A stretch of 6,019 nt of DNA from a virus (IMGVR_UViG_2541047433_000011); one strand, 5' to 3'; shown: positions 212 to 5,987, numbered from the stretch's first letter. Numbers and translations: made by a program. Notes: generated by a model from the letters alone, not told the origin.

Positions 212-240
212 AGTATATGGCTTTTAATCCAGTTTTGCAA
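212..240 (-). promoter_or_regulatory. Candidate late promoter (pR'-like): -35 TTGCAA (240..235), 17-bp spacer, -10 TATACT (217..212)
   Basis: Both hexamers match consensus at 5 of 6 positions with optimal 17-bp spacing. The promoter overlaps the Q stop codon (224..226). The predicted start near 205 would give a transcript of about 50 nt ending at the 150..178 terminator, the arrangement expected for a Q-utilisation module. A -10-like TATGTT sits at about +9..+14 of the predicted transcript and could act as a sigma-dependent pause element. Confidence 0.4.
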
Positions 241-913
241 TATTTTGCTGTAAAAATGCTGCCTTTTGTTTTGAACGTGTTCTCGTCACAAGCAATAAAG
301 CATCACTATCAAGCTGTAGAAAAATGTGCTTCATTGCAACCCAGCGTTCAGTAAATGTCTCGGACCAGTTTTTTGTTGTCACTCCCACCAATGATGCCAG
401 TGTCTGGTATTCATAGGCCTCACGCCCTGCAAGTTCGCTCTTCACATCCTGTGCAGCCAGCCAGATTAACGTCTTCAAACGTTCCAGTGTCTTACCTGCA
501 ATTTTCCTGGTACCCAACAGAGTCTTAAACTCGCTCCATGCCCACTGCGTTATGGTGACCTGATGTTCCCAGCGAACGCTTTCGCTGTAACACCAAAGCA
601 ACCATGCTTTCTGATGTTCATCGAGAGACAAAACCGCGCGGCGCCATGAAGAGGTTGAGAATTCAACCGGGCTGACCAAAGCAATGGATGAACCTTTTGC
701 GTACGACTGCTTACCGGAAATCGGCGGATTATCCAGCGTAATCATCCTGCCAGTTACCTCATCCAGAATGCGCGGCTTCTTTCGTTTGTATGTACCAGTA
801 TCAAATTGTGCATGCTCCAGCCAGGCTTCAAGCTGTCCTTTCGTTGCTCCGCTCAAATCAGCGGTAGCCACAATGAGTTGCTCGCGGACATACTGTAAAT
901 ATTGGGTATTCAT
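224..913 (-). CDS. Putative late-gene antiterminator Q-family protein (229 aa)
   Basis: ATG at 913..911 with an AAGGAG ribosome-binding site; the start overlaps the ylcG stop (ATGA). It is the last gene of the nin operon directly after rusA-ylcG and is followed by a promoter plus terminator, as expected for Q. The size fits the longer (about 230-250 aa) Q family, but I cannot confirm the family from sequence alone. Confidence 0.6.
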   Translation of the reverse strand: MNTQYLQYVREQLIVATADLSGATKGQLEAWLEHAQFDTGTYKRKKPRILDEVTGRMITLDNPPISGKQSYAKGSSIALVSPVEFSTSSWRRAVLSLDEHQKAWLLWCYSESVRWEHQVTITQWAWSEFKTLLGTRKIAGKTLERLKTLIWLAAQDVKSELAGREAYEYQTLASLVGVTTKNWSETFTERWVAMKHIFLQLDSDALLLVTRTRSKQKAAFLQQNIAKLD

Positions 914-1696: not shown

Positions 1697-1859
1697 GATT
1701 CCTCCTTGCTGCCAGTCGCAACCATTTTTTATCAACCAGGCTGGCGGTATATCCGAGCAGTGTTGGTATTTCGGATGGCTTCAGCTCAGGTTTACGCTTA
1801 CGACGATTTGGTACTTTGTAGATGTGTCCGTTCATGACACGAATAAGCGGTGTAGCCAT
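1689..1859 (-). CDS. ninE: NinE (56 aa); absent from the ORF track
   Basis: Hand translation from ATG 1859..1857 gives [56 protein letters not shown], recognised as lambdoid NinE. It has an AGGAGG ribosome-binding site; the start overlaps the ybcN stop (TAATG) and the stop overlaps the ybcO start. Confidence 0.85.
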   Translation of the reverse strand: MATPLIRVMNGHIYKVPNRRKRKPELKPSEIPTLLGYTASLVDKKWLRLAARRNHG

Positions 1860-2314
1860 TACGCCTCCTGCTTGTCACGCAGCAGCTGGAACTCGCAGCT
1901 CTGTGGAATAGTCAGGTGGCAGCCAATATTCATCGCCCAGGCTTCAACCTTACACAGGAAGACATACATCTCTCCGGTACCAAGATCGGAGGTATGGCGT
2001 AACGACTGGATAGTAGTGATTTCGCCGGTTACGACATCAACCAGGTCCTTGGTTTCATAACCGAGGTATGTGTGTTTGAGAGCATCTTTTACCCATGCTG
2101 AAGTAGCGAACGATTTCCCCCTGCTGATGAGGTATTCACTGATTTCGCTGTACCACATGTGGCTGAGTGCATTCTGGGAAAGACTGCGTCTCTCGCGCCA
2201 CGGTTTAAGCACCATGCGAAAGCATTTGCCGTCTTCCAGATAAGTCTGGATCTGCTGACCGACAGCGGTGAAGTTACCGCGATGTAATTTGATGCCATCT
2301 TGTGGGAGGTTCAC
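1859..2314 (-). CDS. ybcN: YbcN, NinB-family recombination/DNA base-flipping protein (151 aa)
   Basis: Translation [48 protein letters not shown]... matches my recollection of DLP12 YbcN. GTG start at 2314..2312 with a GGAGGTG ribosome-binding site, overlapping the stop of the upstream mini-ORF (GTGA). Confidence 0.88.
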
Positions 2315-2409
2315 GCTTCACCTCCGCAGAGATCAAACGCTGGATGCAAGACATCGCAGGTGCATTTCTGCATCTGTGACAAGGTAAGGAGTTCAGATTG
2401 TGGTCGCAT
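2311..2409 (-). CDS. Small ORF (32 aa, [32 protein letters not shown]), possibly ylcH-like; absent from the ORF track
   Basis: ATG at 2409..2407 is preceded by an in-frame stop and an AAGGGGA ribosome-binding site; its TGA overlaps the ybcN GTG start. Size and position upstream of ybcN fit ylcH of DLP12, but I do not recognise the sequence itself. Confidence 0.4.
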
Positions 2410-2428
2410 TTAAGTCCCCTTAAATGCG
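2405..2428 (-). promoter_or_regulatory. Perfect 10-bp stem / 4-nt loop hairpin covering the ribosome-binding site and start codon of the ylcH-like ORF
   Basis: Plus strand CGCATTTAAG (2405..2414), loop TCCC, CTTAAATGCG (2419..2428). On the minus-strand mRNA the loop and 5' arm hold the GGGGA ribosome-binding site and the 3' arm holds the ATG (2409..2407). Confidence 0.4.
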
Positions 2429-2433
2429 CAGAA

Positions 2434-2462
2434 GTCACCGGAGTTGTTCAAGCTCCGGTGAC
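2434..2462 (-). terminator. Perfect 10-bp stem / 9-nt loop hairpin, possible weak terminator at the end of the inserted module
   Basis: GTCACCGGAG (2434..2443), loop TTGTTCAAG, CTCCGGTGAC (2453..2462). It is GC-rich, but on the minus strand it is followed only by UUCUGCGCAUUU and on the plus strand by AUUAUUAU, so neither strand has a clean U tract. Confidence 0.3.
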
Positions 2463-2504
2463 ATTATTATGGAAGGTTGATACTAAAAAATCAAAAATTG
2501 AATA

Positions 2505-2815: not shown

Positions 2816-4342
2816 TCAAAAATAAACCTCACCATCAACCATATATTTGAGAGCACTTATCGCCTGCTGGGCGGATATTACTTTCATTAAAGGATAGTGT
2901 TTAAAAACAATGCCATTCATAAAATAGATATCACAGGTTTTATTATCCGTATTAATTATGATTTTTTCGAATATTTTATAGGCAAGTGTACGGCATAACT
3001 CTCGTCCATTTTTACTGGTTAAGTCAATAGCATAAAAATCACTGAATGAATTTACACCTTTACTCTTCAAAGTTTTCAATGATACCAAAGCTCTTCGTAA
3101 TTCCTTATCTAATAGTCTTATTTTCTCTGCTATAGCGGTAACTTCAGGCGCGACAGACAATGCAACGATTAAATTATTAATTTTCATCTGAAGCTCAATA
3201 ATTTTTAACTCTAAAGTTTCATTAGCATCTTTCTTGTTTTCAACTGGTTGAATTTTGCTACAATTAAAAAGCAATTCATTAATGATATTATAATCAACCA
3301 AATCTCTCTTTATTGATGGCCTGTCACATCGATGTAATCTTCTCATCGGACAAACATAATAGCCATGCAAACTTCCAGATACCGCATGAACAATCATGGT
3401 ATTACCACAAGCCTCACACTTCATAACTGTTCGAAGTAGATTTATTAGCATAGGATTCTTGCTACTATTGCTAATACCAAAAGGTGCCAACCGAATTTCC
3501 TGTACAGCGTAAAACAAATCATCTGATATGACTCTGGGATAATAGCCAGCGATTTCACTTATCCCTTTCCCTCTTGCACGATATGAAGGTACGCATATAC
3601 CTATCAGAGCTTTATTCGCTAATAATTTTTCAATTACAGAAGGCCCCCATGCACTTTCTTTTCCTGAGAAATTCTTTACAGCATGATCATTTAAATACTT
3701 GGCTATTGCATTCAATGAGCGCCTTTCCATCCTGAGTTTAAAAATTAGCTCAATAGTTTTCACCCTGTCGGGGTCTGGAACAAAAGCCGTTCTTTTGTCA
3801 TCTAAGGAGAGCCATCTCGGACAAGACGCCGTCATAATCGTACCTGATTCCAGTGCATCCTGCCGTTTTTTCTTCCATGATAATTTAACCCGACTTGACT
3901 TTATCTCGCTTTCTTCATTTGCCCTTTGTGCTATAAGTATGGCTTTTATTAATGAATATGGCTCATTCAAAGAGTCAATATTATAGACTGTATTGTCGCA
4001 AAGAGTTATAACATCAATACCGTGATTCAAAATCAATTTCAGACGTTCAATCGCTTCACCGACTTTTTCTCTTGAAAGTCTGTCCAGACTTTCAACTAAC
4101 AATGTAGTTCCTGGCAATATATAACCATGCTCTATAGCATCTAAAAATTCCGAAAAAGCTCCTGATTGTGCATGCTTTCCTTTGAATGCACTTAATCCTA
4201 AATCTTCATATGTTATGGTATCAAGATAATAATCACTATTTACCTTTAACCATTCAGCAATAAGTCTTCTCTGTCGGTTTAATGAGTCGCCAGACATCTG
4301 ACCTGGTGATGAAAATCGCATATATGCTATGGCTTTTTTCAT
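2816..4342 (-). CDS. ybcK: Large serine recombinase YbcK (508 aa)
   Basis: The N-terminus AIAYMRFSSPGQ carries the resolvase catalytic-serine motif (compare Y-x-R-V-S-T-x-x-Q), and ESLDRLSR matches the resolvase DRLGR-type motif. A C-terminal Cys cluster (CEACG...YYVCPMRRLHRC) suggests a zinc ribbon, followed by a Lys/Glu/Leu-rich tail. Matches my recollection of DLP12 YbcK; AGGTG ribosome-binding site before ATG 4342. Confidence 0.9.
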   Translation of the reverse strand: MKKAIAYMRFSSPGQMSGDSLNRQRRLIAEWLKVNSDYYLDTITYEDLGLSAFKGKHAQSGAFSEFLDAIEHGYILPGTTLLVESLDRLSREKVGEAIERLKLILNHGIDVITLCDNTVYNIDSLNEPYSLIKAILIAQRANEESEIKSSRVKLSWKKKRQDALESGTIMTASCPRWLSLDDKRTAFVPDPDRVKTIELIFKLRMERRSLNAIAKYLNDHAVKNFSGKESAWGPSVIEKLLANKALIGICVPSYRARGKGISEIAGYYPRVISDDLFYAVQEIRLAPFGISNSSKNPMLINLLRTVMKCEACGNTMIVHAVSGSLHGYYVCPMRRLHRCDRPSIKRDLVDYNIINELLFNCSKIQPVENKKDANETLELKIIELQMKINNLIVALSVAPEVTAIAEKIRLLDKELRRALVSLKTLKSKGVNSFSDFYAIDLTSKNGRELCRTLAYKIFEKIIINTDNKTCDIYFMNGIVFKHYPLMKVISAQQAISALKYMVDGEVYF

Positions 4343-4586
4343 GGTGACACCTGCTAACTTATGCTTTTATAAACCTTAGTGGTGAGATATAATTTTTGTT
4401 TAATTTTTATTTAAAAAGACAATTACGATCACACTATCTTGAATATACAACAATAATCGTATTGCAATTTGCTTACGCAATAATCTTGAAGGCACAAAAG
4501 AATACACAAAAACTAAAAACATTAACAAAAGCGGCCCATGTAAAGATATGAACCGCCATATTGCAGTCTTTTAAAAGAAATTATTT
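4343..4586 (-). promoter_or_regulatory. AT-rich emrE-ybcK intergenic region, likely holding the ybcK promoter
   Basis: A 244-bp non-coding stretch that is extremely AT-rich and has many -10-like hexamers (TATATT, TATATC, TATAAA). No single promoter can be assigned with confidence. Just after the emrE stop there is a weak GCGG/CCGC stem followed by UUUUGUU on the minus strand (about 4524..4557). Confidence 0.3.
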
Positions 4587-4919
4587 TTAATGTGGTGTGC
4601 TTCGTGACAATAAATTAATAACCAACACACCGGCACAAATCAACATCATGCCTATAACGGCTGGCAGGTCCAGCCGTTGGCCGAAAAACCCCCATGATAG
4701 TAAGCTAATCAGGACAATACCGACTCCTGACCAGATAGCATAAGCAATCCCTGTAGGAATATAAGCCAGCGTCTGAGCTAATAACCAGAATGATGCACAA
4801 TAACAAATAATTGTACCAACAGATGGCCATAACCGTGTAAAACCTTCTGAAAACTTCATTAAGGTTGTACCAATGACCTCTGCAAGTATTGCACCACCAA
4901 GATAAATATAAGGGTTCAT
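4587..4919 (-). CDS. emrE: SMR-family multidrug efflux transporter EmrE (110 aa)
   Basis: Translation MNPYIYLGGAILAEVIGTTLMKFSEGFTRLWPSVGT... is recognised as EmrE, including the essential Glu14. The true start is ATG 4919..4917 with an AGGAAAG ribosome-binding site; the ORF-track start at 4973 is a TTG extension. Confidence 0.95.
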   Translation of the reverse strand: MNPYIYLGGAILAEVIGTTLMKFSEGFTRLWPSVGTIICYCASFWLLAQTLAYIPTGIAYAIWSGVGIVLISLLSWGFFGQRLDLPAVIGMMLICAGVLVINLLSRSTPH

Positions 4920-4934
4920 AACATATTCTTTCCT

Positions 4935-4969
4935 GTTCAAACTGGAGAGAATTGTACTACAGTTTGAAC
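4935..4969 (-). repeat. Perfect 10-bp inverted repeat with 15-bp spacer between ren and emrE
   Basis: GTTCAAACTG (4935..4944) and CAGTTTGAAC (4960..4969) are exact reverse complements. No U tract follows on either strand, so it is not an intrinsic terminator. It sits directly upstream of the emrE ribosome-binding site. Confidence 0.5.
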
Positions 4970-4986
4970 TCAACTCACCTGTTTCA

Positions 4987-5289
4987 TCATTGTGTACCCA
5001 TTGATGTTCTTTTATATACCCTCAATACCCGTTTCATCGCGGCACTCTGGCGACACTCCTTAAAAATCAGATTCGTGCTCACCTTTCCTTCCCGTTCTTC
5101 TCTGGTAGCGAACCGGTAATACACCGTTCGCCAGACCTTACCATCAACGACCAGGATTCCTGCCCGCGCCATTTTAGCCGCAGCCTGATTTATGCTGGTT
5201 ACGGTTGCACCTGTTACCGCGGCAACGTCCTGTGCACAGAAGCTCTTATGCGTCCCCAGGTAATGAATAATTGCCTCTTTGCCCGTCAT
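4987..5289 (-). CDS. ren: Ren protein (100 aa), intact
   Basis: Translation MTGKEAIIHYLGTH...VWRTVYYRFATREEREGK... is recognised as lambda Ren. ATG 5289..5287 overlaps the P stop (ATGA), with an AAGGAG ribosome-binding site. Confidence 0.9.
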   Translation of the reverse strand: MTGKEAIIHYLGTHKSFCAQDVAAVTGATVTSINQAAAKMARAGILVVDGKVWRTVYYRFATREEREGKVSTNLIFKECRQSAAMKRVLRVYKRTSMGTQ

Positions 5290-5987
5290 ACACTTGCTCC
5301 TTTCAGTCCGAACTTAGCTTTAATTTCTGCGATCTTCGCCAGAGCCTGTGCACGATTTAGAGGTCTACCGCCCATAACAGGAAGTTGTTTTACTGGTTCA
5401 GGTATCGTCTCACCACGGTTAATTCGCGCTGTCATACAGGTCAGTTCATCGGCAGCCTTGCGCCGTAATTCCGCGTCAGTCAGCGCATTGGCCCGCATGT
5501 TCTGGTACAGGTTGGTAACCAGCCAGTAGTGCGCGTTCGATTTCCACGGATAAGACTCTGCATCCGGATACAGGCCTCGCTTCCGGCAATACTCGTAAAC
5601 CATATCAACCAGCTCGCTGACGTTTGGCAGTCCGGCGATAACGGATGCTTCTTCCCGGCACCATGCAACAAACTGCCCGGGTGATGGAAGAAATGGTCGA
5701 TTCTGCCGACGGGCTACGCGCATTCCTGCGTTAACCTGTTCCATCGAGGTGATCCCGTTTTCCCGGAAAGCCAGAACCCACTGGCGGCGGATTTCGTTCA
5801 GTTCGTTCTGGTCACGGTTAGCCAGACTCGCCGGGAAAGTTGCCAGTAACTGGCTGAACACACCGTTGATGATCTGCGCTACCTGCTGTACCTGCGGCTT
5901 TTCGTCGTACTGTTCCGGCATGTTGTTGGCGATCCGACGCATCTGCTCACGGTCAAAGTTAACCATCTGTGCGGCGATGTTTTTCAT
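5286..5987 (-). CDS. P: Replication protein P (DnaB helicase loader, 233 aa)
   Basis: Translation MKNIAAQMVNFDREQMRRIANNMPEQYDEKPQVQQVAQIINGVFSQLL... is near-identical to lambda P across its length. The start overlaps the O stop (ATGA). Confidence 0.95.
   Translation of the reverse strand: MKNIAAQMVNFDREQMRRIANNMPEQYDEKPQVQQVAQIINGVFSQLLATFPASLANRDQNELNEIRRQWVLAFRENGITSMEQVNAGMRVARRQNRPFLPSPGQFVAWCREEASVIAGLPNVSELVDMVYEYCRKRGLYPDAESYPWKSNAHYWLVTNLYQNMRANALTDAELRRKAADELTCMTARINRGETIPEPVKQLPVMGGRPLNRAQALAKIAEIKAKFGLKGASV

Follow-up and report, generated by a model that had tools for sequence, protein, structure and literature searches.

A conserved structured leader RNA with a small upstream ORF at the entrance to the nin region of lambda-like prophages

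Related systems and the nin-region locus

Translational coupling through a masked initiation site is exemplified by the coat-to-lysis/replicase arrangement of MS2 and by overlapping gene pairs of E. coli. As in the leader described here, the stop codon of the upstream gene overlaps the start codon of the downstream one (GTGA/ATGA), and the downstream Shine-Dalgarno sequence and start lie in a hairpin that a terminating ribosome can open. The leader also resembles MS2-type coupling in that the initiation site of its upstream ORF is itself enclosed in a hairpin. It differs in that this ORF encodes a tiny, poorly conserved peptide and is threaded through a further hairpin (H3), in possessing a predicted promoter as well as a 5' hairpin whose loop is conserved, and in that coupling is here a prediction. 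The proposed type of mechanism (structured leader, upstream ORF, masked ribosome site) is a familiar one.

In lambda, the same map position, between the accessory genes that follow ren and the first Orf/NinB-family gene, is occupied by the intrinsic terminator tR2. Both tR2 and the first hairpin of the leader, H2, are stable stem-loops, and in K-12 RNA 3' ends lie just downstream of H2; however, tR2 has a T-run and neither an adjacent promoter nor an upstream ORF, whereas H2 has no U-tract and keeps a conserved loop. Another point of comparison is provided by the ompA-type 5'-terminal stem-loops, which, according to Emory, Bouvet and Belasco in 1992, reportedly stabilise E. coli mRNAs. These share with H2 a variable stem and a location at or near the 5' end (a predicted location in the case of H2), but they need no particular loop, whereas H2 keeps CUGRRCA.

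The put RNAs of HK022 comprise two hairpins next to a promoter. Together with the N/boxB nut sites they are, like the leader, promoter-proximal stem-loops of lambdoid early or delayed-early transcripts in which the loop is conserved and the stem variable. The put and nut sites lie downstream of pL or pR, whereas the leader lies in the nin region; furthermore, boxB loops have 4-5 nt, whereas the H2 loop has 7-9 nt and no boxA before it, so that H2 does not have the composition of an N-utilisation site. The assignment of H2 to the nut/boxB type was rejected, the phi80 nutL core (CACG-UAAA-CGUG) being unlike it. Homology of H2 and the second hairpin, H1, to lambda tR2 or to HK022 likewise gained no support: a covariance model of H2+H1 gave no match at the lambda nin locus and none in the HK022 genome, in whose record the put sites are unannotated.

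The leader has previously been described only by two GenBank feature lines and one line of a supplementary table. The 1996 record of phage 82 (X92588) already annotates putative -35 and -10 elements, marks the homologue of H2 as a repeat_region with the remark 'possible regulator-binding site', and lists the ylcH homologue as orf33, while the phi80 record (JX871397) marks the homologue of H1 as 'IR4'. Both records flag these features as inverted repeats only and give no strand, RNA structure, covariation or link to translation. Rfam covariance models, run over the whole window and both strands, gave no match at E <= 1; the locus thus offers a well-supported structured RNA that is absent from Rfam and has an experimental 3' end in a public dataset.

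The window, that is, the whole stretch of 6,019 nucleotides analysed here, is part of a lambda-like prophage with its genes on the minus strand (Table 1), and it is 100% identical to E. coli O157:H7 prophages, in which the small ORF carries the annotation of a hypothetical protein. In comparisons with other phages and prophages, similarity spans positions 2250-2496 and ends there. The similar sequences include phage 82, phi80, HK639, HK225, 4A7, phages of Enterobacter and Klebsiella, and about 2400 genomes of E. coli. With a 651-base query, 2395 of 5426 complete E. coli genomes matched in part, including the DLP12 prophage of K-12 and the O157:H7 prophages. The leader stands at the entrance of the nin region in a large share of the lambda-like prophages of Escherichia, Enterobacter, Citrobacter, Klebsiella and their relatives.

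The sequence upstream of the leader varies between phages and prophages, and the homology does not depend on the genes found there; in HK639, the leader is followed by a different NinB/Orf gene. The initial annotation had linked the first hairpin to transcripts leaving an inserted module. Because the shared homology starts at about 2495 and covers both hairpins, with a conserved promoter directly upstream of them, sequence comparison assigns them instead to a nin-side module with its boundary near 2495, and not to the emrE-ybcK insert.

Table 1. Positions of genes, promoter elements and RNA hairpins in the window
Feature	Position	Strand	Remarks
Replication protein P	5286-5987	-	
ren	4987-5289	-	
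emrE	4587-4973	-	
ybcK	2816-4342	-	Serine recombinase
Gap			About 400 nt between ybcK and the ylcH-like ORF
Predicted -35	2489..2494	-	TTGATT; consensus scan; homology shared across phages begins here
Predicted -10	2466..2471	-	CATAAT; consensus scan
H2	2434..2462	-	10-bp stem, 9-nt loop CUUGAACAA; 5' end of predicted transcript
Spacer	2428..2433	-	UUCUG(C), conserved; K-12 RNA 3' ends equivalent to 2429 and 2428
H1	2405..2428	-	10-bp stem, GGGA tetraloop
ylcH-like upstream ORF	2311-2409	-	32 codons
H3	2357..2376	-	CAGAUGCA-GAAA-UGCACCUG, inside ylcH; 7 pairs, conserved A.C mismatch, GNRA loop
H4	2314..2339	-	Pairs ybcN Shine-Dalgarno GGAGG (2325-2321) and part of the GTG start
ybcN	1859-2314	-	Orf/NinB family (weak NinB Pfam match); first nin-region gene after the leader
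ninE, ybcO, rusA, ylcG		-	In this order after ybcN
Q antiterminator	224-913	-	

Hairpins H2 and H1 and the predicted promoter that precedes them

The initial annotation had singled out two adjacent perfect 10-bp hairpins as improbable by chance, and its coordinates proved to be exact. In H1, arms at 2405-2414 and 2419-2428 enclose a 4-nt loop; in H2, arms at 2434-2443 and 2453-2462 enclose a 9-nt loop, and 5 nt separate the two structures. When the window was shuffled 2000 times with dinucleotides preserved, perfect hairpins (10 bp or more, loops of 3-12 nt) arose at a mean of 0.063 per window, and not one shuffle (0/2000) held two of them within 60 nt. Folding as minus-strand RNA, a check that had been suggested with the original observation, gave -18.3 kcal/mol (z -6.5) for H2, which contains 7 G-C pairs, and -13.3 kcal/mol (z -4.7) for H1. 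Jointly, H2 and H1 reach -31.6 kcal/mol (z -8.2), and 0 of 200 shuffles were equally stable.

Comparative analysis was based on 65 distinct leader copies drawn from 80 viral contigs, annotated phages and species representatives of Escherichia, Enterobacter, Citrobacter, Lelliottia, Trabulsiella and Huaxiibacter. The minimum-energy H2 stems of 42 distinct variants contain 52 G.U pairs against 1 A.C, and the H1 stems 9 against 0. Since a G.U pair of the opposite strand would appear as A.C, the 52:1 excess points to minus-strand RNA. The same asymmetry contradicts a plus-strand terminator reading of H2, which a terminator scan had called.

A covariance model was built on the window-type copies, and every copy was then aligned to it. 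Both-side changes are present in 15 of the 20 pairs of H2 and H1 (8/10 in H2 and 7/10 in H1, where 100% of the cells are paired). Over both hairpins, the paired cells amount to 97.9%; sliding the partners lowers this fraction to 30-43%, and 0/500 shuffles come up to the observed value. These covariation figures overstate independence, as the alignment is fitted to the structure and leans towards the model and the sequences are related. Unrelated stem sequences include GUCACCGGAG, UCUGCCAG, GUCGCAGUCGG, GUUGCGUCCGG and CAGCCAG for H2, and AUUUAAG, UAAACG, UUUGAG, AUAUGAUU and CUUCGAUG for H1, and because so many of them occur, the two RNA structures are little in doubt. H2 and H1 are conserved RNA structures on the minus, mRNA-sense strand, with compensatory changes and with G.U pairs confined to one strand, which bears out the earlier view that the hairpins act on minus-strand RNA. 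There is high confidence that these minus-strand structures are functional and form one leader together with ylcH.

The two parts of H2 have evolved differently. Its stem ranges from 5 to 13 bp across copies, with 5-6 bp in the Klebsiella type. Its loop is conserved as (C/U)CUGAACA(A/C), with the variants CUGAGCA and CUGGACA (in summary CYUGARCA or CUGRRCA), and the CUGRRCA loop is common to copies of the E. coli, Enterobacter, Citrobacter and Klebsiella types.

Upstream of H2, the predicted -35 and -10 hexamers are separated by a 17-bp spacer. Among 52 distinct upstream variants, TTGAnn is kept in 48 and the 17-bp spacer also in 48, while nATAAT is found in nearly all. In two copies that have no -35 (L143 and L115), the -10 has turned into the extended consensus TGTTATAAT, which fits the way promoters evolve. 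Hexamers at this spacing, conserved among relatives, match the sequence pattern of a sigma-70 promoter. In E. coli-type copies, the -10 ends 3-4 nt ahead of H2, and its placement in the window predicts a start at about 2459 (A), the fourth stem nucleotide, within the 5' arm. The Klebsiella-type copies have exactly 6 nt from the -10 to H2, so that transcription is predicted to start at the first stem nucleotide. From these features we infer an active sigma-70-type promoter with a start near 2459; the ROSE and EDL933 start-site tables list no entry for the locus. The predicted start falls inside the E. coli-type H2 and leaves its outer 3 bp upstream, and the full 10-bp stem would therefore be present only in read-through transcripts coming from upstream.

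Many relatives carry a canonical intrinsic terminator (a G+C-rich stem followed by a T-run, for instance GGCCTCTTCGGAGGCCTTTTT or CCCCTCTCCGGAGGGGTTTT) 5-25 nt before the leader promoter, among them L095, L267-L270 and most of L192-L265. With a terminator just ahead of the -35, the unit in these relatives looks like terminator, promoter and leader. The window itself has no terminator just before the -35, and its upstream neighbour is the ybcK recombinase module.

Two further features were noted around the promoter. On the minus strand at 2477-2494, the -35 forms one half of a dyad, TTGAT-N8-ATCAA, that extends across the promoter spacer. The spacers of most relatives have a conserved ATAATCAAC, which is a second -10-like CCATAATCA repeat; the window keeps the 3' half of the dyad (GTATCAAC) and not the ATAAT repeat. 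This feature might be the site of a regulator or act as an alternative -10. Some 25 nt further upstream than the -35, positions 2520-2542 form another perfect hairpin, the third, with 9 bp, a 5-nt loop and -12.3 kcal/mol when folded as minus-strand RNA; it has no U-tract and lies outside the phage-conserved region. An unannotated ORF of 63 codons (2505-2696), for which no family match was found, overlaps this hairpin with its 3' end.

The small ORF ylcH and the start of ybcN

The Shine-Dalgarno sequence of the small ORF, AAGGGGA, consists of the last three paired nucleotides of the 5' arm of H1 plus its loop, and the ATG (2409-2407) is located in the 3' arm. AAG and AUG are paired, and GGGA is unpaired. 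The initial annotation had described this hairpin as enclosing and burying the ribosome-binding site: the enclosure of the site and of the AUG is correct, but the GGGA forms the loop and is displayed rather than buried. The upper stem of H1 is A/U-rich in all versions and is accompanied by a G/C clamp and the GGGA tetraloop, and the start codon, AUG or GUG, keeps its place in the 3' arm. Tetraloop and start-codon position are maintained over at least six different stem sequences, and where AUG has become GUG, the 5' arm shows a matching change. Fold energies range from -11 to -17 kcal/mol across versions, which should limit initiation on ylcH.

The K-12 homologue of the ORF is annotated as ylcH. 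The ORF is intact in 63 of the 65 distinct variants, with 29-34 codons, and it is probably translated. Its N- and C-terminal thirds are freely variable, and its conserved core coincides with the position of H3. Searches of the product against Pfam and NCBIfam returned no family, and there is essentially no literature on ylcH. The stop TGA (2313-2311) overlaps the GTG start of ybcN (2314-2312), as had been noted before, and an (A/G)TGA stop/start overlap is found in 62 of 65 variants, whichever Orf/NinB-type gene is downstream.

H3 reads CCGAUGGC-GAAA-GCCACCGG in Klebsiella-type copies, which retain both the GNRA loop and the A.C mismatch. Comparison of these copies with the E. coli type shows changes on both sides in 3 of the 7 pairs, although much of this covariation may come from a single split between the two clades. 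The peptide encoded over H3 changes from SQMQKCTC to SPMAKATG between the same types. Judging from these comparisons, what is conserved at H3 appears to be the RNA structure and not the peptide sequence. A longer version of H3, in which AUGCAGAAA pairs with UUUUCUGCAU in single-sequence folding, was dismissed, as it has no compensatory change and is broken in the Klebsiella type.

The same stretch is met in a bacterial CRISPR array. In Enterobacter sp. BIGb0383 (NZ_RJKQ01000002.1; L142:5414-6299), a type I-E-like array has at least 15 repeats of about 29 nt with a 61-nt period. One of its spacers, at about 5506-5537 (TTGTCACAGATGCAGAAATGCACCTGCGATTTC), matches the conserved ylcH/H3 core of the leader, which means that this invariant part of lambdoid phages is a target for bacteria.

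At the distal end of the leader, H4 was assessed through the minimum-energy folds of 81 distinct variants belonging to three sequence classes. At least 3 of the 5 Shine-Dalgarno nucleotides are paired in all 81 variants and at least 4 in 78, and the start codon is paired in 80. Three unrelated anti-Shine-Dalgarno sequences occur among these variants, and 97% of the cells are paired, with G.U changes. A downstream Shine-Dalgarno sequence paired in 81/81 variants, combined with a stop/start overlap in 62/65, corresponds to the sequence pattern of coupled gene pairs. The proposal that ybcN is gated through the small ORF is thus very plausible, with H4 as an additional hairpin that pairs the ybcN ribosome site and start.

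A C/A-rich stretch (CCACAAUCUGAAC; 2380-2404, minus strand) directly follows the AUG and makes up the first codons of ylcH; in phage 82-type copies it reads CACACACAAUCC. Most lineages have an ACAA core in it, which is missing in the divergent Enterobacter copy L104, and in window-type copies the CUGAAC known from the H2 loop recurs here. The stretch may enhance translation or be targeted by a small RNA. A relation to the AgvB anti-sRNA, which this C/A-rich sequence had suggested, was rejected, given that AgvB and related sRNAs are located downstream of pR' and not here; the Pas sRNA was also set aside, having no link to the leader apart from the nearby RusA gene.

Proposed mechanism and alternative roles of H2

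A translationally coupled ylcH-ybcN leader with its own promoter is the explanation that we consider probable, with moderate confidence. The leader, of about 150 nt on the minus strand, would carry the four conserved hairpins in the order H2-H1-H3-H4 and run into ybcN. Transcription would start at its own sigma-70-type promoter, at the predicted start near 2459, which would put H2 at the 5' extremity of the transcript; there it may be recognised as a 5'-terminal stem-loop that protects or marks the RNA. In K-12, a small fraction of the RNA would end 5-6 nt past H2, by weak termination or by cleavage or trimming. H1 would serve as a translation-initiation hairpin, presenting the Shine-Dalgarno sequence in its GGGA loop while keeping the AUG paired, so that ylcH translation would be limited. 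Ribosomes would then translate ylcH through H3 as far as the ybcN start codon, the peptide sequence being of little importance. H4 would keep the ribosome site and start of ybcN paired, so that translation of ybcN would occur mainly after a ribosome completing ylcH has melted this hairpin. The part assigned to H2 is the weakest in this scheme, and simple 5' protection does not account for its conserved loop.

Term-seq 3' ends, which had been proposed as a further check, were looked up at the homologous locus of K-12 in the supplement of Adams et al. 2021 (PMC7815308). The supplement gives 3' ends at 572349 and 572350 (+) of NC_000913.3, which are curated, belong to the class 'orphan' and lie 19 nt upstream of ylcH (PMC7815308). 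When mapped, they fall 5 and 6 nt past the homologous hairpin, in the sequence ...GGUGACUUCUG. Their scores, about 1600-1900, are among the lowest in the list, and the locus does not appear in the Rho-dependent list of the same study (PMC7815308). The proposed check thus came out positive for K-12, and these ends may result either from weak termination or from cleavage or exonuclease trimming at a stable hairpin.

The position of the K-12 ends, in a region not listed as Rho-dependent, invites the view that H2 is a terminator or attenuator, the counterpart of lambda tR2, that stops transcripts from the upstream genes or from its own promoter before they reach the nin genes and is read through only with an antiterminator such as N-modified polymerase. 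The stability of the stem (-18.3 kcal/mol) agrees with such a role, as do the place of H2, which is the one held by tR2 just before ninB in lambda, and the result of the terminator scan, in which the minus strand showed no further terminator-like site from the leader to Q. However, the stem is followed by UUCUGCGC (UUCUGCGCAUUU on the minus strand), or by GGUUGCGC or ACGAUUAUCC in other variants, with no U-tract, and the scan does not call H2 on the minus strand. Klebsiella-type copies have only 5-6 bp without a U-rich flank, a real terminator often precedes the promoter, which would make a second one redundant, and the conservation of the loop with variation of the stem is the opposite of what terminators show; for these reasons termination is unlikely to be the conserved role of H2. 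In addition, the 3' end signal is close to the lowest listed scores. The terminator or attenuator account is rated as unlikely, and the initial suggestion that the first hairpin could simply stop upstream transcripts does not agree with the missing U-tract, the conserved loop and the short Klebsiella-type stems. Taken as a whole, the interpretation given in the initial annotation is partly supported.

The conservation of the loop over deeply diverged stems would fit a cis-regulatory RNA in which H2 docks a trans-acting phage or host protein, or another RNA through loop-to-loop contact. The factor would control whether transcripts from a repressor-independent promoter continue into the nin genes and Q, for instance by put-like modification of the polymerase or by attenuation. 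In the H2 loop, a YUNR-type CUGA turn precedes RCA, both H1 and H3 have conserved GNRA loops, and two hairpins stand beside a promoter as in the HK022 put RNAs; the stretch from the leader to Q without a terminator-like site and the lack of an Rfam family are also compatible with it. On the other hand, the H2+H1 model has no match in the HK022 genome or at the lambda nin locus, the phi80 boxB (CACG-UAAA-CGUG) is unlike H2, and no particular protein is linked to the leader. A search of the window and of phi80 for a complement to the H2 loop found none that is conserved, the matches being coincidences in coding regions. This docking account is regarded as quite unlikely. A role of H2 as a DNA operator, a dyad-symmetric regulator site overlapping the transcription start, is highly improbable. 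Its DNA is a perfect dyad, and in some variants the arm TATCACCGG resembles a lambda operator half-site. The phage 82 record places its 'possible regulator-binding site' downstream of the putative -10. Nevertheless, the 52 G.U pairs against 1 A.C indicate selection on one strand only, the arms vary freely around a conserved centre, and the outer GTCA/TGAC motifs shared by the E. coli and Klebsiella types are spaced about 10-12 bp differently in the two.

A more far-reaching form of the docking idea, with H2-H1-H3-H4 as an undescribed leader RNA family of lambdoid phages whose H2 loop docks a trans-acting protein or RNA, is a distinctly improbable one. If it were true, the docked factor would decide whether transcripts of an internal promoter that is repressor-independent end after about 30 nt or continue into the nin recombination genes and the late-gene activator Q. 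The late genes of the prophage would thereby have a second control point that does not involve N.

If the promoter of the leader is active in lysogens, the leader would set the levels of the Orf/NinB-type recombination mediator, the RusA resolvase and Q without induction. An active promoter would bear on prophage-host recombination functions and on the silence of rusA in K-12, an old puzzle, and possibly on spontaneous late-gene expression.

Elsewhere on the minus strand of the window, terminator-like sites with T-runs are located at 4530-4557, after emrE, and at 157-178, after the Q gene. Inside ybcK, an inverted repeat with perfect 11-bp arms and a 2-nt centre (TTGAAAGTCTG/CAGACTTTCAA) occupies 4072-4095; apart from H2 and H1, it is the only perfect stem of 10 bp or more in the window.
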